The notes beneath the pieces were generated by a model. The model was not told where the DNA came from and searched no databases. It saw only the letters and a program-made list of their open reading frames with translations. The position numbers and the translations under genes were made by a program. This document shows positions 3 through 38,501 of a stretch of 44,839 nt of DNA, piece after piece (positions within the stretch are counted from its first letter, which is position 1; every line of letters starts with the position of its first letter). Source of the DNA: an uncultured bacterium (GTDB taxonomy: Bacteria; Abyssobacteria; SURF-5); contig CAZSKP010000034.1 of NCBI GenBank assembly GCA_964607485.1, positions 1 through 44,839 on the forward strand. The letters are read 5' to 3'.

Positions 3-962
3 ATCAGGCAGGAGTCGATCATCCGCGCCGCGATAGAGAAGGAGGCGGGCGTTCCCGTTGTGGGCTCCATCCCGAGAATCAAAGACCTGCCCTTCTCGGA
101 GCGCCATCTCGGCCTGTTGCCGCCCGAGGAGCATCCGCGCGCGCAGGTTGCTCTGGAGCGATTATTCAGAGCCGTGATGGACAATGTCGATGTCGATTCG
201 GTCTGGAGGCTGGCGGCATCTTCGCCGCCGTTGTCTCCGTGTCGGGATGCGCTGAGCCCCGCCGTCGGCACGCCGGGCGCTTCGCCCCGGATCGGTGTGC
301 TGCGGGATTCCGCTTTTACCTTCTATTATCCGGAGAACTTGGAGGCGCTCGAGCGGTTGGGCGCGCGGCTTGTCGATGTAAGCGGCCTGCGCGACAAGGA
401 GCTGCCGCCGGTGGATGCCCTGTACATCGGTGGAGGCTTTCCCGAAACCCATGCCCGAGAATTGGCTGATAACGAGAGCTTCCGCACGTCTGTGCGTCGG
501 GAGGTGGAGGACGGCCTCCCGGTGTATGCGGAGTGCGGCGGCCTGATATTCCTCGGAGAGGCCGTGGAGTTCGGCGGCAAGATTTATCCGATGGCCGGCG
601 TGTTTCCGGTCACGTTTTCCGTGGGAGAGAAACCGCAGGGACACGGCTACGTCGTCGTCGAGGTGGACAGGCCGAATCCGTTTTTCGCGCCGGGCACGGT
701 GTTGCGCGGGCACGAGTTTCATTACGCCGGCGTGCTCGAGTACAGGCGCGAGGAAGTGAAGCCGGTGTTCAACGTGAAGCGTGGATACGGGTTTGACTGC
801 GGAAGAGACGGCTTGGTGCACAAGAACGTTCTCGCCTCTTTCTGCCATGTTCATGCCTTGGGCGAAAAGGCGTGGGCCAAGGCGCTGGTGGAATTGGCAT
901 CGCGGAGGATGTGCAGCGTGAGCGGCGCATCCACCGGTAAAACCGCCGCGAAGATGCGATGA
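3..962 (+). CDS. dsrN: Cobyrinate a,c-diamide synthase family / siroheme amide synthase DsrN (5'-truncated by window edge)
   Basis: Frame is open from position 3 (IRQESIIRAAIEKEAGVPVVGSIPR). CbiA/CobB motifs ERHLGL, DSAFTFYYPENL, LYIGGGFPE, YAECGG (glutaminase Cys) and GHEFHY. The dsr context favours DsrN over CbiA. Confidence 0.85.
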   Translation: MRQESIIRAAIEKEAGVPVVGSIPRIKDLPFSERHLGLLPPEEHPRAQVALERLFRAVMDNVDVDSVWRLAASSPPLSPCRDALSPAVGTPGASPRIGVLRDSAFTFYYPENLEALERLGARLVDVSGLRDKELPPVDALYIGGGFPETHARELADNESFRTSVRREVEDGLPVYAECGGLIFLGEAVEFGGKIYPMAGVFPVTFSVGEKPQGHGYVVVEVDRPNPFFAPGTVLRGHEFHYAGVLEYRREEVKPVFNVKRGYGFDCGRDGLVHKNVLASFCHVHALGEKAWAKALVELASRRMCSVSGASTGKTAAKMR

Positions 963-992
963 GCATGCGGCGTAAAGGGTGGTTTTTCGAGA

Positions 993-1916
993 ATGAATGA
1001 CTTGCGTGTGGCGGCAGTCGTCATGAGGTCGGGTTTCGGTGAGACCGAGGCGAACCTGGCCAAGATGGAGCGCTTTGTCCGCCAGGCGGCAAGAAGTGGT
1101 GCAGAGGTCGTCTGCTTTCCCGAGATGAGCGTTACGGGGTATGCCTTGAAAGAGGAGATTCGGGGATTCGCCGAGCCGGTGCCGGGACCGAGCACGTGGG
1201 AAGTGAGCCGGATGGCCGCTGAGAACGATGTCACGATACTTGCCGGCTTGTTGGAACAGACAGAGAGCGACGGAGTGGCCATCACACAAATAATCGTCTC
1301 GCCATCGGGTGAGATCGGCACGTACCGCAAGCTTCACCTGTCTCCGGGCGAGCAGGAGTTCTTCCAGGCCGGGGGTGAGACTCCCATCTTCAGCGCGGGC
1401 GGGACCACGTTCGGGGTGCAGTTGTGTTACGACGCCCACTTTCCTGAGCTCAGCACGCTTCTGGCACTCAAGGGGGCGGAGGTGTTGTTCATGCCCCATG
1501 CCTCGCCGCCTCCGGAGTCTGCCGACGAGAAGAGGGACCGATGGCTGCGGTATCTGTCGGCGAGGGCGTACGACAACGGCGCGTTCGTCGTGGCCTGCAA
1601 TCAGACGGGAGATGGGGGAGCGGGAATTCGTTTTGCCGGGGTGGCCTTGATTCTTGACCCAAGGGGAGAGGTCATCGCCGAGACCTCGGGCGATGAAGAG
1701 AGCATGATAGTTGCCGAGCTGAAGGCCGAGGCATTGACGAGAACGCGGAGCGCGCGAATGGGATTTTTCCTGGCGCACCGGCGACCGGAGCTTTATGGGG
1801 CGCTGACTGTGCCGACGGCCGACATGAGCCTCGAACGGCATCGAGGACGGGTCGGCTCTTGTGAGGATGAGGTACCTGAAGGAGCAGGAAACGCTCAGGC
1901 AGGTTTAAGCTCATAA
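993..1916 (+). CDS. Nitrilase-superfamily carbon-nitrogen hydrolase
   Basis: E-K-C triad motifs CFPEM, YRKLHL and LCYDAHFPE; ARAYDN; C-terminal RRPELY. Confidence 0.9.
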   Translation: MNDLRVAAVVMRSGFGETEANLAKMERFVRQAARSGAEVVCFPEMSVTGYALKEEIRGFAEPVPGPSTWEVSRMAAENDVTILAGLLEQTESDGVAITQIIVSPSGEIGTYRKLHLSPGEQEFFQAGGETPIFSAGGTTFGVQLCYDAHFPELSTLLALKGAEVLFMPHASPPPESADEKRDRWLRYLSARAYDNGAFVVACNQTGDGGAGIRFAGVALILDPRGEVIAETSGDEESMIVAELKAEALTRTRSARMGFFLAHRRPELYGALTVPTADMSLERHRGRVGSCEDEVPEGAGNAQAGLSS

Positions 1917-1986
1917 ATAGTACTTTGTGGGGCTGTTGCCCATCGGGTAAGTCAGGGGCATTCAGGTGTAGAAAGGAACAGAAAGA

Positions 1987-2304
1987 ATGGAAACGATCGA
2001 ACTAGCAGGTAAGACCTTCGAAGTCGACGAGGATGGGTTCCTCCAGAATCCCGAGCTTTGGGACGATGAGGTCGCGACGGCGTTTGCGCCCACAGAAGGA
2101 ATTACGGAGATGACCGAGGAGCATTGGAATGTGGTCCATTACATTCGGGACTACTATTTGAAATTCGGCGTCGCTCCGATGATTCGTAAGCTCTGCAAAG
2201 AGACCGGCTGCAACCTTAAGAAGATATACGAGCTGTTCCCGTCGGGTCCGGCAAAGGGCGCCTGCAAGATCGCAGGTCTCCCGAAGCCGACCGGCTGCGT
2301 TTAA
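1987..2304 (+). CDS. dsrC: DsrC sulfur-relay protein (TusE/DsrC family)
   Basis: VDEDGFL start, EEHWNVV, and C-terminal GPAKGACKIAGLPKPTGCV with both cysteines (C-X10-C). AAGGA RBS upstream. Confidence 0.97.
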   Translation: METIELAGKTFEVDEDGFLQNPELWDDEVATAFAPTEGITEMTEEHWNVVHYIRDYYLKFGVAPMIRKLCKETGCNLKKIYELFPSGPAKGACKIAGLPKPTGCV

Positions 2305-2611
2305 TTCAAGCAAGCGGCTTGCGCATAGGCGCCGCGGAATAGAGATAATCCCCGCCGAGGGCTTCCGCGTGCGGATGCCGAGGAGGGGGAAGGTGAGCAT
2401 ACGCTTTCTTTCCGCGCGACTATTATTGCGCGCGCTGGCCCGCTTGGTCGATCAAACGGCGCCGGGAGTTATGTGGCATGGCCTCGACCAGAGGGTGCTA
2501 CGCCCGAAGGAGTGTCGCAAAGTCCTTCTGGAGGGTGTCGCGGCATATTGGGCGGACGCGCAATCCCGGCCAGACTATGTATCGTGGATTACGGTGTTGG
2601 AGACAGCAATT

Positions 2612-2623
2612 TGGTACTATGAT
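2612..2623 (+). promoter_or_regulatory. Candidate -10 region upstream of dsrTMKJOP
   Basis: TGGTACTATGAT contains an extended -10 (TG-n-TACTAT) and an overlapping TATGAT. No convincing -35. Confidence 0.35.
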
Positions 2624-2897
2624 TCCGGGTTTTGATGAAGGAACCGGTTGGGAGAGTTCCCCAAGAAACTCGAAGATCTCGAAGAGCAAATTCTGAGAGA
2701 TGCACCCCGATTCATCAGGAAGAGCGTTTTTAGGTATTCCCCCCATGAGTAGTTGAGTTCTGAACACTCGAGTGCCGGATGTGCCCGTGTCCCGGGGATT
2801 TGTTGAATTCTCGGGGCATGGAAGAGACGGCGGTTCCGAACCGGCCGTGTAGTGCGGAGATACGACAGATTTGAAACGATAGGGAGTTGCCCGGAGC

Positions 2898-3449
2898 ATG
2901 AAGCTGGAGAGCCTCCTGTCCCAAAAAAAATCAGCGATATTGGAGAAGTGGTTCCAGTTGATAGTGGAGACGTATCCCGCCGATACTTCGCGGTTTCTGA
3001 AGAGGGAGAAGGACCGGTTCGCAAATCCGGTGGGACAGACGATCTTGCAGGGAATAGAGGCCCTGTACGAAGGACTTCTGCGAGGGGCCGATCCTAAGGA
3101 GGCTTCTCCTTTTCTGGACCAAATCGTCAGGATCAGGGCGATTCAGAATTTTTCCCCCTCCGAGGCCGTTGCCTTCATCTTCGATCTGAAGAAGGTTATC
3201 AGGAAGGAACTGGATGCCGAGATTCGGGGAAAGCGCATCAGCACGGAGGAGATGTTGTCATTCGAGTCGAGGGTCGATGCCTTGGCTAATCTGTCGTTTG
3301 ACATATTCATGGAGTGCCGGGAGAAGGTTTACGAACTCACGGCGAACCAGTTGAAGAACAGGACGTTCAGGTTGCTGGAAAGATCGAACCTGATAAGCGA
3401 GATACCGGAACGGGAACCGGATCTCAAAGACGGCGACAATGTGACATGA
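2898..3449 (+). CDS. dsrT: DsrT (RsbRD N-terminal-domain protein)
   Basis: ETYP..TSRFLKREKDRFANPVG and IVRIRAIQNFSPSEAVAFIF motifs; canonical position directly upstream of dsrM. Confidence 0.92.
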   Translation: MKLESLLSQKKSAILEKWFQLIVETYPADTSRFLKREKDRFANPVGQTILQGIEALYEGLLRGADPKEASPFLDQIVRIRAIQNFSPSEAVAFIFDLKKVIRKELDAEIRGKRISTEEMLSFESRVDALANLSFDIFMECREKVYELTANQLKNRTFRLLERSNLISEIPEREPDLKDGDNVT

Positions 3450-3465
3450 AACGAGGTGCTCGTAC

Positions 3466-4458
3466 ATGGGAGCCTTATTTTCGTTCTTCGCAGTTCTAGT
3501 GCTGGTGGCGATTGCGCTTGTCGGGGTCGGGGCGGCAGGCTTGCATAGCCTGTTCGGGGTCGTCATCCCGTATCTGGCGCTTGTCATATTCATCTGCGGA
3601 GTCGTTTACCGCGTCGTGAAATGGGCGCGTGCGCCGGTCCCGTTCCGCATCACCACGACGTGTGGACCACAGAAGTCTCACCCGTGGCTTAAGTCAAGTA
3701 ATCTCGAGAGCCCCTCCAACACGGCGGGCGTCATAGGGAGAATGGCGCTCGAGGTGCTCCTTTTTCGCTCCCTTTTCAGGAACACGAGACTCGAACTGAG
3801 GGATGGGCCGAGGCTGGCCTATGAGTGGGAAAAGTGGCTGTGGCTGGCGGGGCTGACGTTTCATTGGTCTTTTCTCATCATCTTTGTCAGGCACCTCAGA
3901 TTTTTTGTCGAGCCTGTCCCGTACCTTGTGACGATGCTTGAGGGATTGGACGGCTTCTTCCAGGTAGGCGTTCCGGCGCTGTTCATAACCGATGTGGCTA
4001 TTTTGCTGGCCGTGACGTACCTCTTCATTAGGAGGGTTGCCATCCCGGAGATACGCTACATTTCTCTTGCTGCCGACTATTTCCCTCTGTTTCTGATTAT
4101 GGGTTTGGCTGTTTCCGGTGTGCTGATGCGGTATTTCATCAGGGTGGACGTTGTGGGTGTGAAGGAGCTGGCCATGGGATTGGCAAGTTTCCATCCGGCC
4201 GTGCCCGATGGAATCGGCGCGATCTTCTATGTCCACCTGTTTCTTGTCAGCGTTCTGTTCGCGTACTTCCCCTTCAGCAAGCTGATGCACATGGGAGGAG
4301 TTTTCCTCAGTCCCACGAGAAATCTGGCGAATACCAACCGCATGCGCAGGCACGTGAACCCATGGGATTACCCCGTCAAAGTTCACACATATGAAGAGTA
4401 CGAGGACGAATTCAGGGAGAAGATGAAGGCTGCCGGACTACCGTTGGAGAAGGAGTAA
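3466..4458 (+). CDS. dsrM: DsrM, NarI-like membrane cytochrome b
   Basis: PVPFRITTTCG, EVLLFRSLFRN, FHWSF..RHLR, HLFLV..YFPFSKLMH; several TM helices. Confidence 0.96.
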   Translation: MGALFSFFAVLVLVAIALVGVGAAGLHSLFGVVIPYLALVIFICGVVYRVVKWARAPVPFRITTTCGPQKSHPWLKSSNLESPSNTAGVIGRMALEVLLFRSLFRNTRLELRDGPRLAYEWEKWLWLAGLTFHWSFLIIFVRHLRFFVEPVPYLVTMLEGLDGFFQVGVPALFITDVAILLAVTYLFIRRVAIPEIRYISLAADYFPLFLIMGLAVSGVLMRYFIRVDVVGVKELAMGLASFHPAVPDGIGAIFYVHLFLVSVLFAYFPFSKLMHMGGVFLSPTRNLANTNRMRRHVNPWDYPVKVHTYEEYEDEFREKMKAAGLPLEKE

Positions 4459-4460
4459 AT

Positions 4461-6089
4461 ATGTCGGACATTCCAGAAGGCACCCCGAAACCTGAAAAAC
4501 TAGCAAACGTGGATTACAAGCCGTCCCGAAAGGGATGGATGGACACCCCCGTTAAGTTCAGAAAGGGCACCTATTCATACAGCGCCAAGTCGAAGTTCAT
4601 GAAATATCTCGACCTTCCTAACCCGAGGGACTGGACGCCGCCCGATGAAGACTGGAAACTGCCCGAAAATTGGAAAGAGATAATCCTCGAAGGCTTCAGG
4701 GACCGGCTCAATAAGTTTCGCTCCCTGAGGTTGTTCATGGACATCTGCGTCAGATGCGGCGCATGCGCCGACAAGTGCCACTTCTTCATCGGGTCGGGAG
4801 ACCCGAAGAATATGCCGGTGCTCAGGGCGGAGCTTCTCAGGTCGGTGTACAGGAACGATTTCACGGCGGCGGGAAAAGTCCTCGGGAGGCTCGGCGGGGC
4901 GAGAGAGCTTACCGTCGATGTGCTGAAGGAATGGTTCTACTACTTCTTCCAGTGCACCGAATGTCGCCGCTGCTCGGTTTACTGCCCATACGGGATTGAC
5001 ACGGCGGAAATCACGATGCTGGCGAGGGAACTGCTCAACCTCGTGGGCTTGAACATCGGCTGGGCCATCGAGCCCGTTGCCAATTGCTTCAGAACGGGCA
5101 ACCACCTCGGCGTTCAGCCGCACGGCTTCAAGGACAGCATAGACTTTGCGGTGGACGAGCTGGAGGAGATAACCGGCGTCAGGGTGGAGGCTCCCATCAA
5201 CAAGAAGGGCGCCGAGATATTGTTTATCACTCCTTCGGCCGACTACTTCGCTTCCCCGCATTATTACACCCTGCTAGGTTATCTGGCGCTCTTTCACGAG
5301 ATCGGACTGGACTACACATGGAGCACATACGCCTCCGAGGGCGGAAACTTCGGCCTGTTCACCTCTCACGAGATGATCAAGCGGCTCAACGCCAAGATGT
5401 ATGCCGAGGCAAAGAGACTGGGCGTGAAATGGATACTCGGGGGAGAATGCGGCCACATGTGGAGGGTCGTCCATCAATACATGAACACCATGAACGGCCC
5501 CGCCGATTTCCTCGAGGAGCCGGTCTCGCCGATAACCGGCACAAAATTCGAGAATGCAAAATCCACGAAGATGGTCCATATCATGGAGTTCACATCCGAC
5601 CTTATCAGGAATAACAAATTGAAGCTCGACCCGAGCCGAAACGACCACTGGCGGGCGACGTTCCATGACTCGTGCAACCCTTCCAGGGCAATGGGCCTCA
5701 TAGAGGAGCCGAGATATGTGATCAGGAACGTGGCCAACCACTTCTACGAGATGCCCGACAATACCATAAAGGAGCACACTTTCTGCTGCGGGAGCGGGGC
5801 CGGCCTGGGCAATGACGAAAATATCGAGATGAGGCTCAGAGGCGGTCTGCCCAGGGCAAACGCCGTGAAGTACGTTCATGAGAAAAACGGGGTCAACCTG
5901 CTTCTTTGCATTTGCGCGATCGATAAAGCCTCGCTGCCACCGTTGCTGCAATACTGGGTGCCGGGAGTGGAGGTCGGAGGCATCCACGAGCTGGTTGCGA
6001 ATGCGCTGATAATGACGGGTGAAAGGGAAAGAACAACCGATGTGCGGGGTGAACCCTTCAAGCAGGAGGAGGGCGAAGAGGATGTATGA
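4461..6089 (+). CDS. dsrK: DsrK, HdrD-like Fe-S catalytic subunit
   Basis: CVRCGACADKC and CTECRRCSVYCP [4Fe-4S] motifs; GECGH, HDSCN and CCGSG CCG-domain motifs. Confidence 0.97.
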   Translation: MSDIPEGTPKPEKLANVDYKPSRKGWMDTPVKFRKGTYSYSAKSKFMKYLDLPNPRDWTPPDEDWKLPENWKEIILEGFRDRLNKFRSLRLFMDICVRCGACADKCHFFIGSGDPKNMPVLRAELLRSVYRNDFTAAGKVLGRLGGARELTVDVLKEWFYYFFQCTECRRCSVYCPYGIDTAEITMLARELLNLVGLNIGWAIEPVANCFRTGNHLGVQPHGFKDSIDFAVDELEEITGVRVEAPINKKGAEILFITPSADYFASPHYYTLLGYLALFHEIGLDYTWSTYASEGGNFGLFTSHEMIKRLNAKMYAEAKRLGVKWILGGECGHMWRVVHQYMNTMNGPADFLEEPVSPITGTKFENAKSTKMVHIMEFTSDLIRNNKLKLDPSRNDHWRATFHDSCNPSRAMGLIEEPRYVIRNVANHFYEMPDNTIKEHTFCCGSGAGLGNDENIEMRLRGGLPRANAVKYVHEKNGVNLLLCICAIDKASLPPLLQYWVPGVEVGGIHELVANALIMTGERERTTDVRGEPFKQEEGEEDV

Positions 6090-6465
6090 TGCCGGAAAAA
6101 TCATTACCGGGCTGATCGTGTTCCTTGTCTTGATAACCTTCCCCATATGGTACAACCAGGCGAGCGGGGCCGCACTGACCAAGCCCGAGCCAAAAATCGT
6201 CACCGAGGCGAAGGAGTGCGTGGCGCCGACGGAATACATGAGGGAGTTTCATCCGCAAATGTTGAATGAGTGGAGAAACCTGGTTGTGCGCAGCGGCGAC
6301 AGAATCTATATCGGATTCAACGGGGTAAGGCATGAGATGAGCCTTTCCAAGGGATGCATGAAGTGTCATCCGAATAAGACCCAGTTCTGCGACCAGTGTC
6401 ACAACTACGTGGGAGTGACGCCCTACTGCTGGGATTGCCATATCGAGCCTAAGGAGAATAATTGA
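6082..6465 (+). CDS. dsrJ: DsrJ triheme cytochrome c
   Basis: Start reassigned to ATG 6082 (MYDAGKIITG), which overlaps the dsrK end. N-terminal TM helix and three CxxCH motifs (CMKCH, CDQCH, CWDCH). Confidence 0.95.
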   Translation: MYDAGKIITGLIVFLVLITFPIWYNQASGAALTKPEPKIVTEAKECVAPTEYMREFHPQMLNEWRNLVVRSGDRIYIGFNGVRHEMSLSKGCMKCHPNKTQFCDQCHNYVGVTPYCWDCHIEPKENN

Positions 6466-7232
6466 TGGACAGGAGCAGAAGAAATTTCCTGAAGATATCC
6501 GGAATATGTTTGCTGGGGCTCGGAATAAAACCGGTCGTCGATGCGCTTGCAGCAGGCGAGGAGCCGCAGTTCCTGCCCGACCCGAACGCCCTCGTGGGGA
6601 AACGGTGGGCCATGGTCGTCGATATCGAGAGGTGCAAGGATGATTGCACAGACTGCATAGCCGCCTGTCATCACGTCCACAACGTTCCCGACTTCGGCAA
6701 TTCGAAGGATGAGATAAAGTGGATCTGGCACGATGAGTATGAGCACGCATTCCCCGGCCGGGAGCATGAGTACGTCGAAGAGAGTCTGAAACACAAACCC
6801 TTCATGCTGCTCTGCAACCACTGCGACAATCCGCCATGCTGCAGGGTATGTCCCGTGCAGGCCACATGGAAAAGGGAAGACGGAATCGTCATGATGGATT
6901 TTCATCGGTGCATCGGCTGCAGGTGCTGCATGGCCGCATGTCCCTACGGGTCGAGAAGCTTCAACTGGAGAGACCCTCGCCCCTTCATAAAGGATGAGAA
7001 TCCGGATTTTCCGACGAGGATGAAAGGTGTCGCCGAAAAATGCAATTTCTGTGCTGAGAGGCTGGCCGTCGGCCTCATGCCTGCATGCGTGGAGGCGTGC
7101 AAGCATCAGGCGCTCGTCTTCGGCGACCTCCAAGATCCCGACTCGATGGTGAGACGGCTTCTGCGTCGGAATTTCACCATTCAACGGAAACCAGAGCTTG
7201 GCACAAGGCCGCAGGTTTATTACATCGTGTGA
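6465..7232 (+). CDS. dsrO: DsrO periplasmic ferredoxin-like subunit
   Basis: Tat signal SRRNFLK; Cys clusters [39 protein letters not shown] and KCNFC. TGATG coupling to dsrJ. Confidence 0.96.
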
Positions 7233-7239
7233 GGTGGCT

Positions 7240-8397
7240 ATGTTAGAGAAGGCGCTGACTGGAAACAAGAGATACTGGGCGTGGATAACACTGCTGCTTG
7301 CCGTCATCGGTGTGGGAACCGGATGCTACCTGTATCAATTAAGGGTAGGTTTGGGAATAACGGGAATGGGCAGGGACATCTCGTGGGGGCTGTATATAGG
7401 CCAGCTCACATTCCTCGTGGGAGTGGCCGCCTCGGCGGTCATGGTGGTTCTGCCGTACTATCTGCACAACTACAAGGCATTCGGCAAGATTACCGTCTTG
7501 GGAGAGTTTCTCGCCGTATCCGCGGTGACAATGTGTGGCCTGTTCGTCCTCGTCGACCTTGGCAATCCTGCCCGGATGTTAAACCTGGTACTGTATCCGA
7601 CACCCAGGTCGATCCTGTTTTGGGACTTTGTCGTTCTGAACGGATACCTTTTGCTTAATATCCTGATCTCGTGGAACGTGCTGGCGGCAGAGCGCAAATC
7701 GGTGCCTCCCCCAACGTGGGTAAAGCCTTTGATATATATTTCGATCCCCTGGGCCGTCAGCATACACACGGTCACAGCCTTCCTGTACGCAGGTCTGCCG
7801 GGGCGTCACCTCTGGCTCACCGCCATCATGGCGGCCCGGTTCCTCGCGTCGGCCTTTGCCGCCGGCCCGGCGCTGCTCATCATTCTGTGCCTCATCATCA
7901 GGAGGATCAGCAAGTTCGACCCCGGCAGGGAAGCCATTCAGAGTTTGGCGAAGATTGTCACGTACGCTTTGCTCATAAGCATCTTCTTCGTGCTGCTCGA
8001 ATTCTTCACCGCCTTCTACAGTCAGGTGCCGGGACACATGGAGGGTCTCCGGTACCTCTTCTTCGGCCTGGAAGGGTACCATAAATTCGTTCCCTGGATG
8101 CGTACCGCCTCCGTGCTCGCGATAGTTGGGGCCCTGCTCTTGGTAAACCCGCGGACGCGAAAAAACGAGGGCACCTTGGCCCTCGCCTGCGTGATGGCTT
8201 TTGTCTCGCTGTGGATCGAGAAGGGGCTGACGCTGGTCATAACCGGGTTCATTCCCTCGCCCCTGGAAAGAATAACCGAGTACACGGTCACGGTGCCCGA
8301 GCTGCTGATCACGCTCGGCATCTGGGCGATCGGGTTTTTGGTGCTTACCATCCTCTACAAAATAGCCGTCTCGGTGAAGGAAGAATTGGCGGTCTAA
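7240..8397 (+). CDS. dsrP: DsrP, NrfD/PsrC-family membrane subunit
   Basis: Start at ATG 7240 after [32 protein letters not shown] and [11 protein letters not shown] motifs; polytopic. Confidence 0.96.
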
Positions 8398-8515
8398 GCC
8401 TTCTTGTCGGGCCGTGCGTGCAAGACCATGCCCGGCGACCACACTGCTCGCCGGCTCGGTTGTCTCTTCCATCAAGCCTTCCTCCCGTCCTGTTTCGTTT
8501 CACCGCACGAAATTA

Positions 8516-8524
8516 TGCTATAAT
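8516..8524 (+). promoter_or_regulatory. Extended -10 promoter element for the kinase-HK-RR module
   Basis: Perfect TG-n-TATAAT (TGCTATAAT) in the dsrP-kinase intergenic region. An identical 9-mer at 8601-8609 overlaps the kinase ATG. Confidence 0.55.
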
Positions 8525-8607
8525 CCAGACTTGGAGGCTGAGCGGCCTGAGAGCCGCCACCCGTCCTTTTGGCAGGAAGGGAGGCTTTCTCTTGTTGGGA
8601 TGCTATA

Positions 8608-9576
8608 ATGAATGAGCGAAGTCAATCCTGGCTCAGCGAGCGCATCGCGCAGGTCTCGAGCATAGCCGTTCCGGAGCGGCTCGAAATCATCACCGACACG
8701 ACCGAATTCATGAGCATCCACCGTGGTCATGTGCTCAAGCTCGACGGCCGACATTTTCTCGTCACGGGGAATATCTATGAATCTCGTTTCGGATTGAGCG
8801 ACGAGCCGAAATACTGGGTGAAGAAAGCGGTGGACCTGGAGACCGGAGCCCAGCAAATCATAAAGTTGGTCTATTATGAGGAATTTGTAGTGCGCATCGG
8901 CCGGCTCAGGATACGATGCTACAGGAAGCCCCGCAAGGAGACCCAGGTGCTCGAGCTCGTCCGAGGCAATTCGCACTTCATGCAGGGAGGTGCACTGTTC
9001 GACAAGAATCGCAATGAGGTGCGGACCATCGACTTCATTCGGGGCAAATCCCTGTATAACCTGATTTTTGATTTGAATCTGTCGCACGAAGAATACTTTT
9101 ACACGGTTCTTCCCCGTATTCTGAGGAAGCTCAGGGATTGCTTTGCAGCCATCCAGGTTCTACATGATTCCGGCCTGTGTCACGGCGATATCCGCAACGA
9201 CCACATCCTCGTCGAGAAGGATACGGATGATTATCGCTGGATCGATTTCGACCTCACGCAGGATTTCTCCGACTACGATATCTGGAGTCTTGGCAATGTG
9301 CTGCAATTCTGTATCGGGATGGGAATGAGGACCTTTTATGAAGTGTTTGAGTCCGGCAGTTTCCCCGAGGCGGTCAGGCGCCGGCTCGGCTCGGACGACG
9401 CCTCCGCGTTCTACGAGCACCGGATCATGAACCTGCAGAAACTTTTTCCCTACATACCCGACCGGCTCAACAACATCCTGCTTCATTTTGGTGTGAACAC
9501 CACGCGCTTTTACGAGTCGGTAACACAAATCGTCTCCGATATAGATGAGGTGTTGGAAGAGCTTCAGACGGCCTGA
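8608..9576 (+). CDS. Atypical Ser/Thr protein kinase-like protein
   Basis: IIKLV (ATP-binding Lys), HGDIRNDH catalytic-loop variant, WIDFD (DFG-like) and DIWSLG (subdomain IX). Start taken at ATG 8608. Confidence 0.8.
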   Translation: MNERSQSWLSERIAQVSSIAVPERLEIITDTTEFMSIHRGHVLKLDGRHFLVTGNIYESRFGLSDEPKYWVKKAVDLETGAQQIIKLVYYEEFVVRIGRLRIRCYRKPRKETQVLELVRGNSHFMQGGALFDKNRNEVRTIDFIRGKSLYNLIFDLNLSHEEYFYTVLPRILRKLRDCFAAIQVLHDSGLCHGDIRNDHILVEKDTDDYRWIDFDLTQDFSDYDIWSLGNVLQFCIGMGMRTFYEVFESGSFPEAVRRRLGSDDASAFYEHRIMNLQKLFPYIPDRLNNILLHFGVNTTRFYESVTQIVSDIDEVLEELQTA

Positions 9577-9578
9577 CC

Positions 9579-11114
9579 ATGGATAGACCCGTGAAAATTC
9601 TGCGAGCCAAGAAACGCGTCGGCATAGGGGTGAGGCTGGCCATCATGATGGCCGTGCTGATGGTTCTCTCGACTGGCTTTTTTGCAATACTCAGTCTGCT
9701 CAGCCAGCGCCACGAATCGATAGATATGTTCGTCCAAGGCTCTCTCAATATGTGCAGCTCGCTCGAGCGCATACTGCGCTTCAGTATGCTGGAGAACCGG
9801 CGCGACGAGATCAAATCGGCAATCAAGCAGATAGCCGTCGAAAATGTGATAGAAGAGGCTACGTTGGTGACTCACACCGGCGAGCCCGTTTACAGCAGCA
9901 ACCCCGGTTTGAGCGAGCGCGTTTCCATCGATGACATGCGATGCTCCGGATGTCATGCGGGGAGGGGGACGAGGCCCCTGCAGCGGTTGCCCGCGGCTGA
10001 GAACTTTCATCTTCTCAAGGAGCCGAAGGTGGCCAAGGTCTGGCTGCCGATCTATAACGCGCCCGAATGCTACAATAGCGCCTGTCACGCCCACTCTCCG
10101 GAGGAGAAGGTGCTTGGAGTGATGCAGTTGGACGTCTCCTACGCCGGCATCGACAAGCTGCTGGGCAGGTCATTCATGCGGCTCATGCCCCTTTCGATAC
10201 TCATAGCTCTGGTGACGTCGTTGATTGTTCTGGGACTGATTCGGCGCTGGGTTTCAAATCCCGTGAAGGACCTCCTGGACGGCACGCGCCGCGTAGCCGA
10301 CGGCGAACTGGGCCACGTCATTCCCGTCGGCGAAGCTGAGCTGGGCGCGCTGGCGCGGGCATTCAACAAGATGCAGGAGAAGCTTCTTTCCAGCCAGAGG
10401 CAGCTCATAATGATCGAGAAGCTTGCCTCCATCGGCAAGCTGTCGGCCTCGGTCGCGCACGAGATTAATAACCCGTTGACCGGCATCCTCACGTTTGCCG
10501 AGGACCTCGTCGATAGTTCCGAGCCGGAGGATCCTCGTCTTTCCGATTACAAGGTCATTCATCGGCAAGCCATTCGCTGCCGGCAGATTGTTCGGCAGTT
10601 GCTCGATTTTTCGCGCCAGGATAAGCCGAACCTGCAGCCGGTAGACATGAACGAAGTTCTTTTGCACACACTCGATTTTGTTTCCAGACAGGCTATCTTC
10701 CGCAACATCGTGATTGAGACAGACCTCCGGGAACATCTGCCGCCTGTGACCGCCGACCCGATACAACTCGAACAGGTGATACTGGACCTGTTGGTCAATG
10801 CTGCCGAAGCCATGCCCGACGGCGGCCGAATCTTCATCGCGTCCACTGCGCCGCCGACGAAAAAAGAAGTCGAGGTGTCCATACGCGACACGGGGCCGGG
10901 AATTCCCGAGGAGAATCTTCAACGAATATTCGAGCCTTTCTTTTCAACCAAGGGCGGCAAGTCGATGGGCATCGGCTTAGCCGTGAGCTGGAACATCATC
11001 AACCAGCACGGCGGTCGTCTGGAAGCCGAGTCGAAGCTTGGCGAAGGCACGACGTTCCGCATCACTATGCCGTGGGCCAAGCCCGCTCCGGCCGCCGTCG
11101 ACGCGCCAACGTAA
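9579..11114 (+). CDS. Membrane sensor histidine kinase with putative heme-c periplasmic domain, HAMP, HisKA and HATPase
   Basis: Two TM helices flanking CSGCH and CYNSACH; H-box VAHEINNPL; DTGPGI, FEPFFSTK and GIGL boxes. Confidence 0.93.
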   Translation: MDRPVKILRAKKRVGIGVRLAIMMAVLMVLSTGFFAILSLLSQRHESIDMFVQGSLNMCSSLERILRFSMLENRRDEIKSAIKQIAVENVIEEATLVTHTGEPVYSSNPGLSERVSIDDMRCSGCHAGRGTRPLQRLPAAENFHLLKEPKVAKVWLPIYNAPECYNSACHAHSPEEKVLGVMQLDVSYAGIDKLLGRSFMRLMPLSILIALVTSLIVLGLIRRWVSNPVKDLLDGTRRVADGELGHVIPVGEAELGALARAFNKMQEKLLSSQRQLIMIEKLASIGKLSASVAHEINNPLTGILTFAEDLVDSSEPEDPRLSDYKVIHRQAIRCRQIVRQLLDFSRQDKPNLQPVDMNEVLLHTLDFVSRQAIFRNIVIETDLREHLPPVTADPIQLEQVILDLLVNAAEAMPDGGRIFIASTAPPTKKEVEVSIRDTGPGIPEENLQRIFEPFFSTKGGKSMGIGLAVSWNIINQHGGRLEAESKLGEGTTFRITMPWAKPAPAAVDAPT

Positions 11115-11129
11115 ATCGGAGGGTCGCGA

Positions 11130-11912
11130 ATGTCAGAGCAAGTGAGAGTGCTCGTCGTGGACGACGAGGAAATCGTTCTGCAGAGCGTGCGCAAAGTGCT
11201 CAAACCCGACGAGGAACACCACTTCCTCATTGATACCGCACTGTCGGCGGCCGACGGGCTCGATCTCATGAGTCGAACGAAATACGACATAGTAGTGACC
11301 GATCTGATGATGCCGAACGTGGACGGGTTGGAGTTCACCGACCGCGTCCGTCAGCTCGAACCGGAGGCACGCGTCATCATGATCACCGGCTATGCGACCA
11401 TGCGAACCGCCTTGCAGGCTCTGCGCAGAGGGGCGTTCGACTACATCGCCAAGCCCTTCACAAAGGAAGAGCTGCGGGGCGTCGTCAAGAACGCTGCCCG
11501 GCTGCGAGGGGTTCCCGAAGCAAAAGGGGAAAAAGCGGCCGTCGAGCGAGGGGGCCTCAAGCCGGGGGAATGTCGCAGCTTTTTCAACCAAACGTATGCG
11601 TGCATGCAAGCGGATGGAACGATGTGTTTCGGAGTTGAGGCCGCCTTCCTTGCCAGTATCGGCGAACCGCTCAGTATCGAGGTCTCAAAGGTCGGCGAAA
11701 GCGTTTCTCAGGGGTTCCCGTTCGGCGCGATCACGAACTCGAACATGAGGGTCTTCAACCTGCGCTCGCCCTTCAGCGGACGCGTCCTGAAAGTGAACCA
11801 GGACGCGCTCGATGACATGAAAGTCGTGCGGGAAGACCCAAGGGGCAAAGGCTGGCTTGTCCAGGTTGCTCCCACCGATTTTGAGTCAGAGCTCGACAAC
11901 CTCGCGGGCTGA
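11130..11912 (+). CDS. Response regulator: receiver domain fused to a glycine-cleavage-H-like domain
   Basis: Receiver motifs VVDDEE, VTDLMMP, ITGY and YIAKPF. C-terminal VGESVSQGFPFG..SPFSGRVLKVN..EDPRGKGWLVQV matches the GcvH fold signature. Confidence 0.85.
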   Translation: MSEQVRVLVVDDEEIVLQSVRKVLKPDEEHHFLIDTALSAADGLDLMSRTKYDIVVTDLMMPNVDGLEFTDRVRQLEPEARVIMITGYATMRTALQALRRGAFDYIAKPFTKEELRGVVKNAARLRGVPEAKGEKAAVERGGLKPGECRSFFNQTYACMQADGTMCFGVEAAFLASIGEPLSIEVSKVGESVSQGFPFGAITNSNMRVFNLRSPFSGRVLKVNQDALDDMKVVREDPRGKGWLVQVAPTDFESELDNLAG

Positions 11913-11962
11913 GAAAATCTCTTCAAACCCCACATATCGAACCTGTGGGGACTGTCTTTCCC

Positions 11963-12018
11963 GTCATTCCCGCGGAAGCAGGAATCCATAGATTCCCCGG
12001 TCACGCTGGGGAACGACA
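11963..12018. repeat. REP-like palindromic doublet between convergent genes
   Basis: GTCATTCCCGCGGAAGCAGGAATCCA followed by the oppositely oriented unit TAGATTCCCCGGTCACGCTGGGGAACGAC. Each unit is an imperfect ATTCCC...GGGAA hairpin. Confidence 0.7.
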
Positions 12019-12071
12019 ATTATTCTAATCAAGGCGTAAGGGTGGTATTAAATTTCCGTCTTTGGGGAGTT

Positions 12072-14453
12072 TTAGTAGGTTGTGCCGATCAGGGAGGTCC
12101 GCATCAGCTCGCTTTGCGGGTTGGTGCGGAACAGAGGAAATTCGATCAGAGGCAGGTCGTCGCTCATGACCGGAGCGGCCTGGACGTAGCGCCTGACACC
12201 GTTTTCATCGAGCAGGAGCCGGGGTAGCACGCTTCTCCTGTCGGTGATGTCCTTGGTATAGAGCGAAAGGTCCTTCCTGACCGATGGAGCGTCGAAGTAT
12301 TCGTCGAAGGACTTCCTGTCGAACTGGAGCGGTTCGGGCGTGCCTATCAGGAATGTCCCCAGGTTGTAGCTCGAAGTCCAGACCGAGGTGTGAGGGAAGA
12401 CCTCTGCAAAAGTCCTGAGCAGCATCATGAACTGCTCCTCAGTGGATGAGTACATGGGGATCCACTGGCAGATGACCCCCTCCGGCGTCAAGCGCCTTTT
12501 GCACAGTTCATAGAATTCCTTCGTGTACAGGTTCACCGTTCCGGCGCTGTAGGGGGGAGGCGGCGGGTCTATCGTGATTACATCGTAGGTCTTGTTCGAG
12601 AGAAGAAGATAGTTTCTGCCGTCGGCTATTATCTTTCCCGCTTTCGGTCCTGTCAGGAGGGACGGGTCCTTTTGAAAATACTTGAACGCTTCGACGACAT
12701 AGGGGCAAAGCTCGACGAAATCGACGTCCATTCCCGCGCTCCTGGCTGAGACGAAGGTAGTTCCCATCCCGAAGCACACGACCAGAACGTTCCGGGGGTC
12801 GCTCGCCAAAGCGAGGGGAAGGTGCGCCATCAACTGCGGTTCCACGTGAAGGTATGTCATCGATATGCCGTTCACGGTGAGAACGCGCGTGCCCGTGGCG
12901 TTTTCGGCGACGGCAACGGCGGCCGTGGCGTCTTCGTCGAAAGCTATGACCTTCCACTCTTCGTTGGTCCGACCTTCAAGGAGCTTGACGGAGAGCTCCT
13001 TCATGAGATTGTTGCCAAAAGGCAGCCCCGCCACAGGCAGCACGAAGAGCGCGGCCGCAACCCAGTTGAAAGCGGCCACTCTTTCTTCCTTCATCGCCAC
13101 CGACAGGAGTGCGAAACCGCAGGACATGCTCACAAGAACGAGCAGCAGCACGCTGTTCTTGGAGCCAACGAGCGAAATTAGGACGAACCCGGCCACGAAC
13201 GACCCTACAATCGCGCCGACGGTGTTGACCGCATAGACCGTTCCCGTCTGCCTGCCTATCGCGCCCAGGCTGCGGGCGTATATCCTCACCGCCGTCGGGA
13301 AGGTGGCCCCCATGAGCAGCGTGGGCGGCAACACCACGACAACGGTGCTGGAGAGATTCTTCGCGAGATAGCCCCATGCGTTCGTCTTGAGCGAATAGGG
13401 CGTGAAGGGCAGCCGGCTGAAGAGAACCAATCCGCCGAGGACGCTCAGGCCGATGAGTATTTCCAACCAGGCAAAGGCATAGAGCGGTCGTCTCAGCTTG
13501 TCCACGATGCGGGCGAACAGCAGGCTCCCGGCCGTCAGCCCGAGCAGGTACACCGCCAGTATCATCGAAAATGAATATATCGAGCTGCCGAGCAGGAACA
13601 CGAGTATCCGCGACCAGAGAACCTCGTATGCCAGCGCCGCCATGCCGGAGAGTCCGAATATGAGGAGCACGACCCTCAGCGTGCCGGCGGAGTATCTCTC
13701 TTCCCCCTCTTCGCCCTTCGGTTCGGAGGTGTCACTTTCCGCCGGCAAAGCGTCTCCAAGCCGGCGATGCAGCCCGAACGCAATCACCCCGATGAGGAAA
13801 TTGACCGAGGCCGCCACGTGTTCGGACCTGCTTATCCCGATCCATCCAAGCAGCACAAAGCCCGCCAGGAAGCAGCCGGCCATCGCTCCAAGCGTGTTTA
13901 TCGCATACAGAGAACCGATGTTGGCCCCCCTCTGGTCCACTCTTCTGACCACGAACTTGGACAGAACGGGCAGCGTCGCGCCCATCAGCGTCGTGGGAAC
14001 TATCAGCACGCCCGCCGACATAAGGAACTTGACCAGGCTCATCGCATAGTTGGAGGCGCCGGTCTTGTTGTATAGGAACCGATATGCGGGAGTGAGCGCG
14101 GCGAGCGCAAACGGAATCAGGATCGCCGAAACGCCGATTCCTATCTCGAGCAGGGCGTAAACTCGAATGGGGTCTTTCCTCTTGTCGATGAAATTCCCAA
14201 ACCATATGCTTCCGCATGCAAGCCCTCCCATGAACGCCACCAGGACGGTGCTGATGGAATACACCGTGATTCCGAAAATGAGCGTGAGCCTGCGTGTCCA
14301 TACAATCTCATAAATGAGCGCGCACATGCCTGACAGGAAGAAAAGCAGGAGGAAGACGCCGAAACTGCCTGCGGGGAGTTCTCGCGGGCCAGCTGGCTTT
14401 TCGGTTTCTTCGACGCGCGGGCTCTGAAGCCTGGTGGATGAACTGCTTTGCAT
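12072..14453 (-). CDS. Fused MFS-like membrane domain / spermidine-synthase-like SAM-fold protein
   Basis: Duplicated membrane halves (LSGMCALIYEIVWTR and LSGMAALAYEVLWSR). C-terminal VLVVCFGMGTT, VELCP, ADGRNYL, DVITIDPP, NLYTKEFY and GVICQW. Confidence 0.88.
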   Translation of the reverse strand: MQSSSSTRLQSPRVEETEKPAGPRELPAGSFGVFLLLFFLSGMCALIYEIVWTRRLTLIFGITVYSISTVLVAFMGGLACGSIWFGNFIDKRKDPIRVYALLEIGIGVSAILIPFALAALTPAYRFLYNKTGASNYAMSLVKFLMSAGVLIVPTTLMGATLPVLSKFVVRRVDQRGANIGSLYAINTLGAMAGCFLAGFVLLGWIGISRSEHVAASVNFLIGVIAFGLHRRLGDALPAESDTSEPKGEEGEERYSAGTLRVVLLIFGLSGMAALAYEVLWSRILVFLLGSSIYSFSMILAVYLLGLTAGSLLFARIVDKLRRPLYAFAWLEILIGLSVLGGLVLFSRLPFTPYSLKTNAWGYLAKNLSSTVVVVLPPTLLMGATFPTAVRIYARSLGAIGRQTGTVYAVNTVGAIVGSFVAGFVLISLVGSKNSVLLLVLVSMSCGFALLSVAMKEERVAAFNWVAAALFVLPVAGLPFGNNLMKELSVKLLEGRTNEEWKVIAFDEDATAAVAVAENATGTRVLTVNGISMTYLHVEPQLMAHLPLALASDPRNVLVVCFGMGTTFVSARSAGMDVDFVELCPYVVEAFKYFQKDPSLLTGPKAGKIIADGRNYLLLSNKTYDVITIDPPPPPYSAGTVNLYTKEFYELCKRRLTPEGVICQWIPMYSSTEEQFMMLLRTFAEVFPHTSVWTSSYNLGTFLIGTPEPLQFDRKSFDEYFDAPSVRKDLSLYTKDITDRRSVLPRLLLDENGVRRYVQAAPVMSDDLPLIEFPLFRTNPQSELMRTSLIGTTY

Positions 14454-14520: not shown

Positions 14521-14550
14521 TTGCTGCCTGGGTCGGGAGCATGCTATAAT
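14521..14550 (+). promoter_or_regulatory. sigma70 promoter for the YfhO-like gene
   Basis: TTGCTG-18 nt-TATAAT with extended TG. Confidence 0.65.
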
Positions 14551-37439: not shown

Positions 37440-38501
37440 TTACTCGGGCTTGGGCATATCGATGGTGAACTCATGCTTGGTGTAAATCTGCAGCAGTTTG
37501 ACGGTTCTCGCCTCGGCGTCTATGTCCACAACCTTGAAATTCTTGACCGTGTCTCCCTCTTTCACATACACGGGCTGATTGGTCTGGGGCAACTGGATTA
37601 TAGCATATAGCGTATGGCCCAGCATATTGATGCCGCGAAGCTTCAGGGTAGGCGTTTCAATGTACAGCGATATCTGGTTAAGCAGACGACGCGCCCGGGC
37701 GTTGGTCGGGTCTATTCGCAGAGAAAGGCGAACGTTCTCGAGAGCATCATAGTAGCGCTTGCTGATAAAAAGCTCGTCGGCACGGGCCAGGAGCTCGTTA
37801 TTCGTTCGCATAAGAAGATTCGACGCCCTCGTGTCGGACGGGTTTATCTTGATGACTTCCTTGGCTTTTGTTATCAGCTGTGAATATTCCTTTTTTCTGA
37901 AATGAACCTGCGCCTCGGCCAAGAGACGCTCTCCGATGCGCAATAAGAGTTCCTGGGCATCTTTGTGTTCGGGCCTGTGTTTGAGCACAAGCCTGGCATC
38001 GGCCAGAGCGGCCTCGATTTCACCTGCATCGAACTCCCTGTTCGCCCTCTGGGTGGTGGCGTCCGTGGCAAGATCAATGAGGCTGCGTGCGCGTTCGTCT
38101 TCCGGATCCATCTGCGAGACCGCCACGGCTGTGGCCAGCGCCGCCTTGTAGTCTCCGACCAGAAACTGCGCGTGCCCCTCGTCCAACATGTCTGCCTTTT
38201 CCTTTTGGGCTTTCACGGAACTCCAGAGCCTGTGAAACGGAGAGCCTCGACCGGAGGAAAAGACTGCACGGAAATCTATCTTGTACAGCCGATAGTCAGC
38301 GATAAAATAGCCGGCCACTGCCACGGCCACGCACACAAACAGAACTTTCGTCAGGAGTCTCGTAAGCCCGGACGTGCGCGCGGCGAACCATAGCGCCTTG
38401 AGCCTCCCGGATATAGGCTTGGCTTTCTCTTCTTCTTTCGCCGCAGGGGCCTCGACGTTCAGCTCTGCAAGTCGCCTTTTTTGGTCGGGTGTGAGCACCA
38501 T
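37440..38501 (-). CDS. Membrane-anchored TPR-repeat protein with C-terminal beta domain
   Basis: One TM helix; repeated helices ending DPEDERA, RPEHKDA, NPSDTRA and DPTNARA; C-terminal LKLRGI..YAII..VKEGDTV..FKVVDI. Confidence 0.75.
   Translation of the reverse strand: MVLTPDQKRRLAELNVEAPAAKEEEKAKPISGRLKALWFAARTSGLTRLLTKVLFVCVAVAVAGYFIADYRLYKIDFRAVFSSGRGSPFHRLWSSVKAQKEKADMLDEGHAQFLVGDYKAALATAVAVSQMDPEDERARSLIDLATDATTQRANREFDAGEIEAALADARLVLKHRPEHKDAQELLLRIGERLLAEAQVHFRKKEYSQLITKAKEVIKINPSDTRASNLLMRTNNELLARADELFISKRYYDALENVRLSLRIDPTNARARRLLNQISLYIETPTLKLRGINMLGHTLYAIIQLPQTNQPVYVKEGDTVKNFKVVDIDAEARTVKLLQIYTKHEFTIDMPKPE

Follow-up and report, generated by a model that had tools for sequence, protein, structure and literature searches.

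A three-gene cassette of an atypical kinase-like protein, a sensor histidine kinase, and a receiver-GcvH regulator accompanies dsrA and may regulate sulfur respiration

Three adjacent genes just downstream of dsrP in an uncultured bacterium of the Abyssobacteria (GTDB lineage SURF-5) form a conserved cassette that may act as a regulator of sulfur respiration. They lie on the + strand of contig CAZSKP010000034.1 (GenBank assembly GCA_964607485.1), positions 1 to 44,839 of which, 44,839 nucleotides (nt) on the forward strand, are here referred to as the window, and they encode an atypical kinase-like protein (aPK), a sensor histidine kinase (HK), and a response regulator (RR) that joins a receiver (REC) to a GcvH-like domain. 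The cassette occurs in at least eight phyla, as judged by record titles, and its aPK family is, in three phylum samples, almost confined to genomes bearing dsrA, a gene of dissimilatory sulfite reductase (Dsr). We lean, with a little more than even confidence, toward a portable cassette that accompanies Dsr and in which a redox-sensing HK signals through the RR to aPK, which would act as an effector on the Dsr pathway and not by way of DNA. The three genes and the sites within their products to which we refer below are as follows.

8608 to 9576, + strand: aPK, a 322-residue atypical Hanks-fold kinase-like protein (Pfam, AlphaFold model, and structure matches)
9181 to 9204, + strand: aPK catalytic loop HGDIRNDH, residues 192-199 (profile alignment)
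aPK residues 213-215, + strand: DFD (profile alignment)
9579 to 11114, + strand: sensor HK, 511 residues (Pfam HAMP, HisKA, and HATPase_c)
HK residues 12-43 and 198-226, + strand: transmembrane segments TM1 and TM2, hydrophobic and flanking an outer loop
9942 to 9956, + strand: haem motif CSGCH in the HK outer loop, residue 122
10068 to 10088, + strand: haem motif CYNSACH in the HK outer loop, residue 164
HK residues 220-269, 286-348, and 393-499, + strand: HAMP, HisKA (with H294), and HATPase_c (Pfam)
11130 to 11912, + strand: RR, 260 residues (Response_reg, 99.9 bits; GCV_H, PF01597, 50.3 bits, cut-off 22.2)
11148 to 11486, + strand: RR receiver, residues 7-119, with D58 (Pfam Response_reg)
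11595 to 11894, + strand: RR GcvH-like domain, residues 156-255, with M206 at the lipoyl-lysine position

An initial annotation made from the DNA letters alone had described these as three tightly coupled genes without a DNA-binding domain, and that observation is confirmed, while the interpretation attached to it is partly supported. The open reading frames (ORFs) are separated by 2 and 15 nt, a spacer of 210 nt lies between the end of dsrP (position 8397; NrfD, 129 bits) and the ATG of aPK at 8608, for which a TTG at 8569 is an alternative start, and no Pfam DNA-binding family matched any of the three proteins. Likewise, no NCBIfam family scored above its cut-off for any of them.

The three families belong together, as had been anticipated. 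Relatives of aPK were found in at least 561 stretches of the species-genome collection, and the best 79 new loci were analysed (genomes, loci, and contigs in our comparisons carry our own labels, beginning with G, L, and C). Genes for aPK, HK, and RR follow one another in that order at 60 of these 79 loci, or at 60 of 68 when contig-cut loci are excluded. The others run from aPK to HK and then reach a contig end (seven loci), hold aPK near a contig end (four), have aPK and RR without HK (one), place RR 5' rather than 3' of aPK (one), or hold aPK alone, without HK and RR (six). A search that started from the RR yielded 22 loci with full-length or contig-cut REC-GcvH genes, and aPK was also present in 17 of the 23 loci examined. 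Beyond close relatives, no other neighbour was conserved around either the RR-based or the aPK-based loci; this includes any separate DNA-binding regulator, the kind of partner that the initial annotation had named as speaking against its proposal.

Record titles place the cassette in Abyssobacteria and relatives, Zixiibacteriota, Kapabacteria, Ignavibacteria, Fibrobacteria, Pirellulaceae, Myxococcota, KSB1, Bryobacterales, and Chloroflexi, and some titles, such as “Hyphomicrobiales,” probably belong to mislabelled bins. In a quick, midpoint-rooted tree of aPK, from which L098, L102, L147, and L152 were left out because ORF calling had not assigned them to the aPK cluster, cassettes with a haem-type HK form a basal grade, those with a soluble HK form one clade of 57 rows (support, 99), and Pirellulaceae branch separately. 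One locus from a record titled Hyphomicrobiales, probably mislabelled, appears to have lost the two-component pair naturally and kept aPK: L112 has the same flanks as L105, L113, L117, L121, L127, and L141, all of Kapabacteria-type synteny, and HK and RR are absent after its aPK. At a locus from an Opitutaceae record (L021:10001-11793), two REC-GcvH genes in tandem come after the gene of a di-haem HK, with no aPK nearby, and the genome has a dsrA-like gene that at 328.7 bits falls below the family cut-off.

The distribution of the cassette follows that of dsrA, which we called by TIGR02064 matches above the curated cut-off. Among genomes with RR-GcvH loci, 17 of 23 carry dsrA, as do 44 of 50 further genomes with aPK loci (tested out of 68 candidates), so that 61 of 73 carriers overall are positive. 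The misses include two genomes with dsrA fragments at contig ends, several without a complete cassette, and one single-cell genome that holds a 49%-identical DsrK. Genomes were also sampled evenly within three phyla, named here by a genome and its record title, and the counts are given below with Fisher p values, which overstate independence because of kinship within phyla.

Phylum of G008 (Zixiibacteriota), 151 genomes: aPK in 32, dsrA in 57, both in 32 (one as a contig-end fragment); Fisher p 1.7e-17
Phylum of G029 (Myxococcota), 201 genomes: aPK in 5, dsrA in 12, both in 5; Fisher p 3e-7
Phylum of G407 (Desulfobacterales), 201 genomes: aPK in 31, dsrA in 101, both in 29 (two as fragments); Fisher p 5.9e-8

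Among genomes negative for dsrA, aPK was found in 0 of 94 in the phylum of G008, 0 of 189 in that of G029, and 2 of 100 in that of G407. Chance adjacency to dsrP, which we had considered as an explanation for the position of the cassette in the window, is rejected by these genome-level counts.

Physical linkage to dsr genes is found in part of the family. The dsrMKJOP genes stand directly 5' of the cassette in the window and in four relatives (L001/L090, L002/L093, L091/L203, and L092). In the sister genome G024, one strand carries, in order, a qmoC-like gene, a CoA-disulfide-reductase-like gene, dsrA (564.6 bits), dsrB (536.5 bits), a dsrD-like ORF of 103 amino acids, dsrN, a hydrolase gene, dsrC, dsrT, dsrMKJOP, and then aPK, HK, and RR. 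A Bryobacterales locus reads TauE (on the opposite strand), dsrM-like, dsrK-like, cytidylate-kinase-like, and DUF202 genes followed by a haem-type cassette. At the Pirellulaceae locus L012, the RR gene is followed by two DsrC-family genes (10836-11465, +), which lack the C-terminal Cys arm in the stretches translated, and by a convergent DsrK-like CCG gene (11517-13064, -). The association with dsr genes anticipated at the outset holds at the level of the genome, and the cassette adjoins dsrMK(JOP) in two phyla; at other loci it is unlinked to dsr genes.

Several lines of evidence place aPK among kinase-fold proteins. The AF2 model of the protein (19 sequences) is confident (pLDDT, 90.4) and has a bilobal kinase fold. 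Its best structural match is PknB (1mru_A; VIA Z, 17.6; root mean square deviation, 3.5 over 223 residues), followed by S. aureus PknB, YabT, and PknG, and Foldseek returned a probability of 1.00 with a TM of about 0.5. A profile-to-PDB alignment sets HGDIRNDH on HRDLKPEN, DFD on DFG, and DIWSLG on DLWSLG, and the DxWSxG of subdomain IX is retained. All 19 aPK sequences compared, a paralogue from the same genome included, have K86, E111, H192, G193, D194, R196, D198, H199, D213, and D215 unchanged. D194 and D213 align with the Asp residues of HRD and DFG in MSK1, and K86 and E111, to judge by their positions in the model, would be the β3 Lys and the αC Glu. The family is compact and sharply bounded, with 743 representatives at E 1e-3 and 105 at E 1e-30 among 1.84 billion, and its members are publicly annotated as “hypothetical protein,” “serine/threonine protein kinase,” or “Bud32.”

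The HK is a complete sensor kinase, with HisKA (52 bits) and HATPase_c (91.6 bits) each above cut-off and H294 set within SVAHEINNPL. Its outer loop (residues 44-197), in which Pfam at E 0.01 found no family, carries a CXXCH motif and a CX4CH motif, the latter of which we take to be a haem-c site as in cytochromes c3. Both are kept in 11 of 11 haem-type HK orthologues, whose record titles name at least four phyla, and the loop is predicted to bind haem. Most cassettes have another kind of sensor. Among 60 complete cassettes, 11 have the di-haem HAMP form and 49 have a soluble, cytoplasmic HK with no membrane segment and no haem motif, in which two PAS domains are combined with an N-terminal domain of about 120 residues. 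Pfam returned nothing for these first ~120 residues; they model as a Rossmann fold (pLDDT, 89.6), for which the best Foldseek match is the NAD-binding domain of the acylating acetaldehyde dehydrogenase DmpF (1nvm_B; E 5.8e-5; 26-29% identity). Both forms of the HK have predicted input domains of a redox type. Since 49 of 60 cassettes use the haem-less kinase, the system is not defined by haem; the haem sensing first proposed fits the conserved motifs of the haem-type kinases but does not extend to the Rossmann/PAS kinases.

In the RR, the receiver identified in the initial annotation has a full phospho-acceptor pocket, with D11, D12, D58, T86, and K108 invariant in 19 of 19 RR sequences. The closest NCBIfam rows for this receiver are of the NosR, AtoC, FixJ, and NtrC types, all under cut-off. 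The lipoyl-domain-like output module suggested for the protein is indeed a GcvH-like domain fused to the receiver. It matches 13 GcvH sequences in the PDB, at E values from 1.1e-12 (3tzu) to 4.4e-4, and the structural Gly, Pro, and Trp positions of GcvH are conserved in the RR family. The lipoyl lysine of 3tzu aligns with M206, in a hairpin that carries one extra residue and is Ser/Thr-rich across the family. None of the 19 family members has Lys at this column (L014 has one a position later), and the domain, while it has an H-protein fold, therefore cannot be a lipoyl carrier. The part of the system that is most conserved and most specific to dsr is aPK and not the GcvH domain, and aPK also occurs without HK and RR, paired with a Usp (universal stress protein) gene. 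A complex prediction for aPK and RR gave scores of 0.06 and 0.07 against a mark of 0.32 and gives no verdict either way.

Further evidence on aPK comes from its paralogues. Records of Desulfobacterota and Nitrospirota hold aPK relatives that are 41-46% identical and do not stand beside HK or RR-GcvH genes; these form one side of a branch with a support of 99 (SH-aLRT). A gene of about 150 codons for a universal stress protein (Usp) follows the paralogous aPK at 6 of 12 loci (L175-L186), and among the best 79 loci of a profile scan (L205-L283) a Usp gene lies directly downstream in 76 and directly upstream in 2, the remaining locus being cut by a contig end. The genome that holds the window has such a pair as well, on contig C14 (L085:6674-8778, minus strand), where an aPK paralogue of 41% identity is followed by a Usp-domain protein. 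The kinase-like protein is the shared element, and HK with REC-GcvH or Usp are its alternative partners. Records of cultured sulfate reducers have Usp-paired aPK genes, among them those titled Desulfofustis glycolicus DSM 9705, Solidesulfovibrio alcoholivorans DSM 5433, and Desulfovibrio caledoniensis, so that genetic tests may be possible there.

GcvH-like domains also recur in the same genome, which has four GCV_H matches in total. The three besides the RR are proteins of 272, 244, and 293 amino acids encoded in tandem on contig C41 (L084:3230-16314, minus strand), each with one N-terminal hydrophobic segment. Genes for NrfC-like and NrfD-like proteins come next, then one for a haem-HK paralogue, two for multihaem cytochromes, and a PsrABC-like set for a molybdopterin oxidoreductase. 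The HK paralogue is 31% identical to the cassette HK and has CYACH and CYTAPCH at the same places. This order is kept in three relatives (G001, G002, and G025), and a Krumholzibacteriia genome likewise has NrfC- and NrfD-like genes flanked by genes for GcvH-like proteins, one of the latter abutting a haem HK. The set may encode an undescribed membrane complex with GcvH-like subunits.

On these grounds we propose the following mechanism. The HK would read redox state, here through two c-type haems in its periplasmic loop and in most other lineages through a cytoplasmic NAD(P)-type Rossmann domain and PAS domains, and would phosphorylate D58 of the cognate receiver. Phosphorylation of the receiver would alter binding by the GcvH-like domain, taken as a protein-contact module. 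The putative common effector, aPK, would be switched by phosphorylated REC-GcvH in this cassette and by Usp in the Desulfobacterota paralogue, and it would phosphorylate a protein of the Dsr pathway or of the electron supply to Dsr. Haem binding, phosphotransfer, contact between the GcvH-like domain and aPK, the activity of aPK, and its target are what we infer here. In a bolder form of this proposal, which we regard as quite unlikely, the aPK family would be a dedicated post-translational regulator of Dsr in sulfate and sulfite reducers of many phyla, with DsrC, DsrMK, or the Sat/Apr/Qmo supply line as its target, redox (through HK) or energy charge (through Usp) as its input, and the GcvH-like domain as a membrane-side mimic of a lipoyl arm at the CCG site of DsrK or at NrfD-type complexes.

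A number of observations weigh against the proposed mechanism. Kinship weakens the Fisher tests, and the recurrence across phyla is the stronger argument. Many dsrA-bearing genomes lack aPK (25 of 57, 7 of 12, and 72 of 101 in the three samples), so the family is accessory rather than core and is not needed for Dsr function. The cassette lies away from dsr genes in most phyla; in G064, aPK and dsrA are some 820 kb apart on the same contig. RR-GcvH genes stand without a nearby aPK at five loci (L005, L014, L020, L021, and L023). The Pfam Pkinase match to aPK, at 22.2 bits, is under the cut-off of 31.7; in the catalytic loop, Arg replaces the kinase Lys and His replaces the Mg-binding Asn; and the activation segment is almost absent, with about eight residues between DFD and DIWSLG and no full APE segment. 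Given this altered loop, very short activation segment, and sub-cut-off match, aPK could be a pseudokinase or a small-molecule enzyme. A search of sequencing runs listed no RNA run that holds this stretch of DNA. Finally, no dsrA was found in the bin that holds the window, which is 97.5% complete, or in the relatives G001, G002, and G025.

The last of these points agrees with Momper et al. 2018 (PMC6121073), whose Abyssubacteria bins are reported to have sat and aprAB and to lack dsrAB and dsrD. The contig of the window begins inside dsrN, and the contigs of L001 and L002 begin at about the start of dsrN, as computed from locus positions. In G024, the genes dsrA, dsrB, and dsrD lie directly 5' of dsrN, in a repeat of 2,622 bp, a second copy of which stands 14 kb away with 99.92% identity.

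L203:13532-16153, G024: one copy of the repeat, 2,622 bp
L204:8938-11559, G024: the other copy of the repeat, 2,622 bp

The simplest account would be that assembly broke at the repeat and that the short repeat contig was left unbinned. The gap in dsrAB in this bin and in the three related bins is probably one of assembly or binning, and as such it bears on the published view of Abyssubacteria. A true absence of dsrA, from which a link specific to DsrMK would have followed, was considered and dropped because the contig starts in dsrN and the dsrABD genes of G024 sit directly upstream in the repeat.

Other explanations share parts of this evidence. The GcvH-like domain could itself be the output, as the initial annotation proposed, with the phosphorylated RR docking on the cytoplasmic side of DsrMK(JOP), for instance at the CCG domain of DsrK in imitation of a lipoyl carrier, or on DsrC and gating electrons, while aPK served as a second input by phosphorylating the RR. 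In sulfur oxidisers, Hdr-like CCG proteins have lipoate-binding GcvH-like proteins as their partners. The cassette adjoins DsrK-type genes in three phyla. The main support comes from contig C41, where the genes of the three membrane-anchored GcvH-like proteins neighbour NrfC- and NrfD-like genes and that of a haem HK paralogue, an arrangement kept in three relatives and partly in Krumholzibacteriia, since DsrO and DsrP are of the NrfC and NrfD types. The Ser/Thr-rich hairpin at the lipoyl site could, furthermore, be a kinase site. Most cassettes, however, are far from any dsr or NrfD gene, and the element common to all contexts of the family is aPK and not the GcvH domain, and we consider such docking unlikely.

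We judge it rather unlikely that the cassette serves certain anaerobes as a general module for redox or energy stress and lacks a specific target in Dsr, its tie to dsrA being due to lifestyle, descent, or shared islands. The sensors do read general redox signals, to judge by the haem c, the NAD(P) fold, and the PAS domains; the partner of the paralogue is a universal stress protein; and the location away from dsr genes and the absence from many dsrA-bearing genomes would fit as well. Such a module is hard to square with the near absence of aPK from dsrA-negative genomes in three largely anaerobic phyla, and the tie to dsrA recurs in at least eight phyla by title, with linkage to dsrMK having arisen in separate phyla. 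It is also conceivable, and in our view very improbable, that aPK is not a protein kinase and instead acts on small molecules, as a kinase or nucleotidyl-transferase for a metabolite or cofactor of sulfur respiration, or is a dead scaffold, regulated by the two-component pair or by Usp. The changed loop, the DFD in place of DFG, the loss of the usual peptide-binding platform with so few residues between DFD and subdomain IX, and the separation of the family from ordinary kinases all point that way. Its best structural matches, by contrast, are bacterial Ser/Thr protein kinases and not aminoglycoside or choline kinase types, no variation is seen in the residues that stand for the β3 Lys, the αC Glu, and the catalytic and metal-binding Asp, and the DxWSxG typical of protein kinases is kept.

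Two-component regulators with outputs other than DNA binding are known, as are Hanks kinases that phosphorylate response regulators. The cassette shares with such systems a HisKA kinase, an NtrC-like receiver, and an associated Ser/Thr kinase; aPK differs from a global kinase in that it is inherited together with the HK and RR as their dedicated partner in the operon. The nearest described system is the Cache_haem-HAMP (CHH) receptor with its operon-linked, PknB-like Ser/Thr kinase (Deshpande et al. 2026, bioRxiv 10.64898/2026.05.25.727664), and the comparison that follows draws on parts of that preprint. In both, a haem-c sensor in the periplasm is joined through a membrane span to a cytoplasmic HAMP domain, and the operon also encodes a Hanks-type kinase; the output, which is not transcriptional in the CHH system, is proposed to be likewise here. 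The cassette HK has the arrangement that characterises CHH receptors, with a CXXCH (CSGCH at 122) between transmembrane segments followed by HAMP (220-269), and attachment of haem is predicted. The differences are several. The CHH receptor, as described in those parts, has no enzymatic output, whereas the cassette HK has a complete HisKA/HATPase_c core and is paired with a receiver of its own; the CHH sensor is a Cache_haem domain (DUF3365/Tll0287) with one CXXCH, while the loop of the cassette HK, which has no Pfam match at E 0.01, pairs CXXCH with CX4CH. The PknB-like CHH kinase binds HAMP through helical repeats at its C terminus, whereas aPK ends at residue 322 with its C-lobe and has an N-terminal extension and an altered loop. 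Neither a GcvH-like domain nor a dsr link is part of the CHH system as set out there, and most aPK cassettes have neither HAMP nor haem.

Two further comparisons concern the GcvH-like domain and the dsr genes. The RR domain belongs to the same family, PF01597, as GcvH and as LbpA of sHdr systems, which we take to be a lipoate-binding GcvH-like protein; it differs in having Met206 in place of the lipoyl lysine, a hairpin longer by one residue, and a fusion to a receiver. Like the dsr accessory genes (dsrC, dsrD, dsrN, dsrT, and dsrMKJOP), the cassette has a distribution that follows dsrA, and in this clade it ends a single-strand dsrABD-N-C-T-MKJOP cluster. Unlike them, it is a signalling and not a catalytic unit, stands apart from the dsr cluster in most phyla, and accompanies only ~30-55% of the dsrA-bearing genomes sampled. 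The main text of a survey of dsrAB in 950 genomes (PMC10591310) does not contain the terms “kinase,” “two-component,” or “response regulator,” a statement limited to that part of the publication. The literature that we searched holds no description of the cassette, of REC-GcvH regulators, of a dsr-linked haem HK, of a dsr-linked kinase family, or of kinase genes peculiar to sulfate reducers. While the components are of known kinds, the receiver-GcvH output, an atypical kinase family with two fixed sets of partners, and the restriction to Dsr appear to be new. To our knowledge, post-transcriptional control of Dsr-based sulfur respiration is largely unknown, and the aPK family offers a concrete, testable candidate through which redox state or energy might control sulfite reduction. 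In metagenome bins that have lost dsrAB at an assembly break, as seems to be the case here, it may provide an additional genomic marker of Dsr-type metabolism.

The spacer between dsrP and aPK contains two promoter-like elements.

8516 to 8524, + strand: extended -10-like element TGCTATAAT, the candidate promoter of the cassette, kept in L001 and L002
8601 to 8609, + strand: second copy of TGCTATAAT, overlapping the ATG at 8608; L002 has TGTTATAATG there, and L001 is without it

That the cassette has its own extended -10, as first claimed, is borne out to the extent that the element is present and is conserved in two aligned relatives, but a scan for sigma-70 -35/-10 pairs found no + strand site before the cassette and hence no -35. 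A separate promoter is plausible from the sequence, and, with no terminator detected after dsrP by a terminator scan, read-through from dsrP into the cassette could occur as well.

Upstream, the cassette completes a single run of + strand genes that spans positions 3 to 11912.

3 to 962, + strand: 3' part of dsrN, a CobB-like a,c-diamide synthase gene (NCBIfam cobB, profile positions 156-420 and 158-447)
993 to 1916, + strand: carbon-nitrogen hydrolase (Pfam CN_hydrolase, 170.9 bits), at the same position in L001, L002, and L203
1987 to 2304, + strand: dsrC (Pfam DsrC, 136.5 bits), with a complete C-terminal arm ending in ...GLPKPTGCV
2898 to 3449, + strand: dsrT-like gene with an RsbRD_N domain (Pfam RsbRD_N, 76.7 bits)
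3466 to 4458, + strand: dsrM (Pfam Nitrate_red_gam)
4461 to 6089, + strand: dsrK (Pfam Fer4_8 plus CCG)
6019 to 6465, + strand: dsrJ (weak NapC/NirT-like Pfam match)
6462 to 7232, + strand: dsrO (Pfam Fer4_11)
7198 to 8397, + strand: dsrP (Pfam NrfD)

The first of these genes is presumably dsrN, a name that we assign by position, and the fragment is 72% identical to residues 234-549 of the full-length gene that stands beside dsrABD in G024. The gene with the RsbRD_N domain is what we take to be dsrT. Across dsrMKJOP (3466 to 8397), gene order is unchanged in L001, L002, and L203, with identities of 64-87%.

Past 12 kb, the genes of the window are unrelated and encode MFS/spermidine-synthase fusions, YfhO-like membrane proteins, glycosyltransferases, a RecD2-like helicase, and a TonB receptor. 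Four copies of the 10-mer ATGCTATAAT are present in the window, where 0.02 would be expected, and these copies, which include the two before the cassette, may represent a strong extended -10 consensus of this organism. Of the other exact copies, one (14541-14550, +) lies 51 nt before the start of a YfhO-like gene, and one (37597-37606, -) lies 376 nt before the TonB-receptor gene, inside the preceding ORF.

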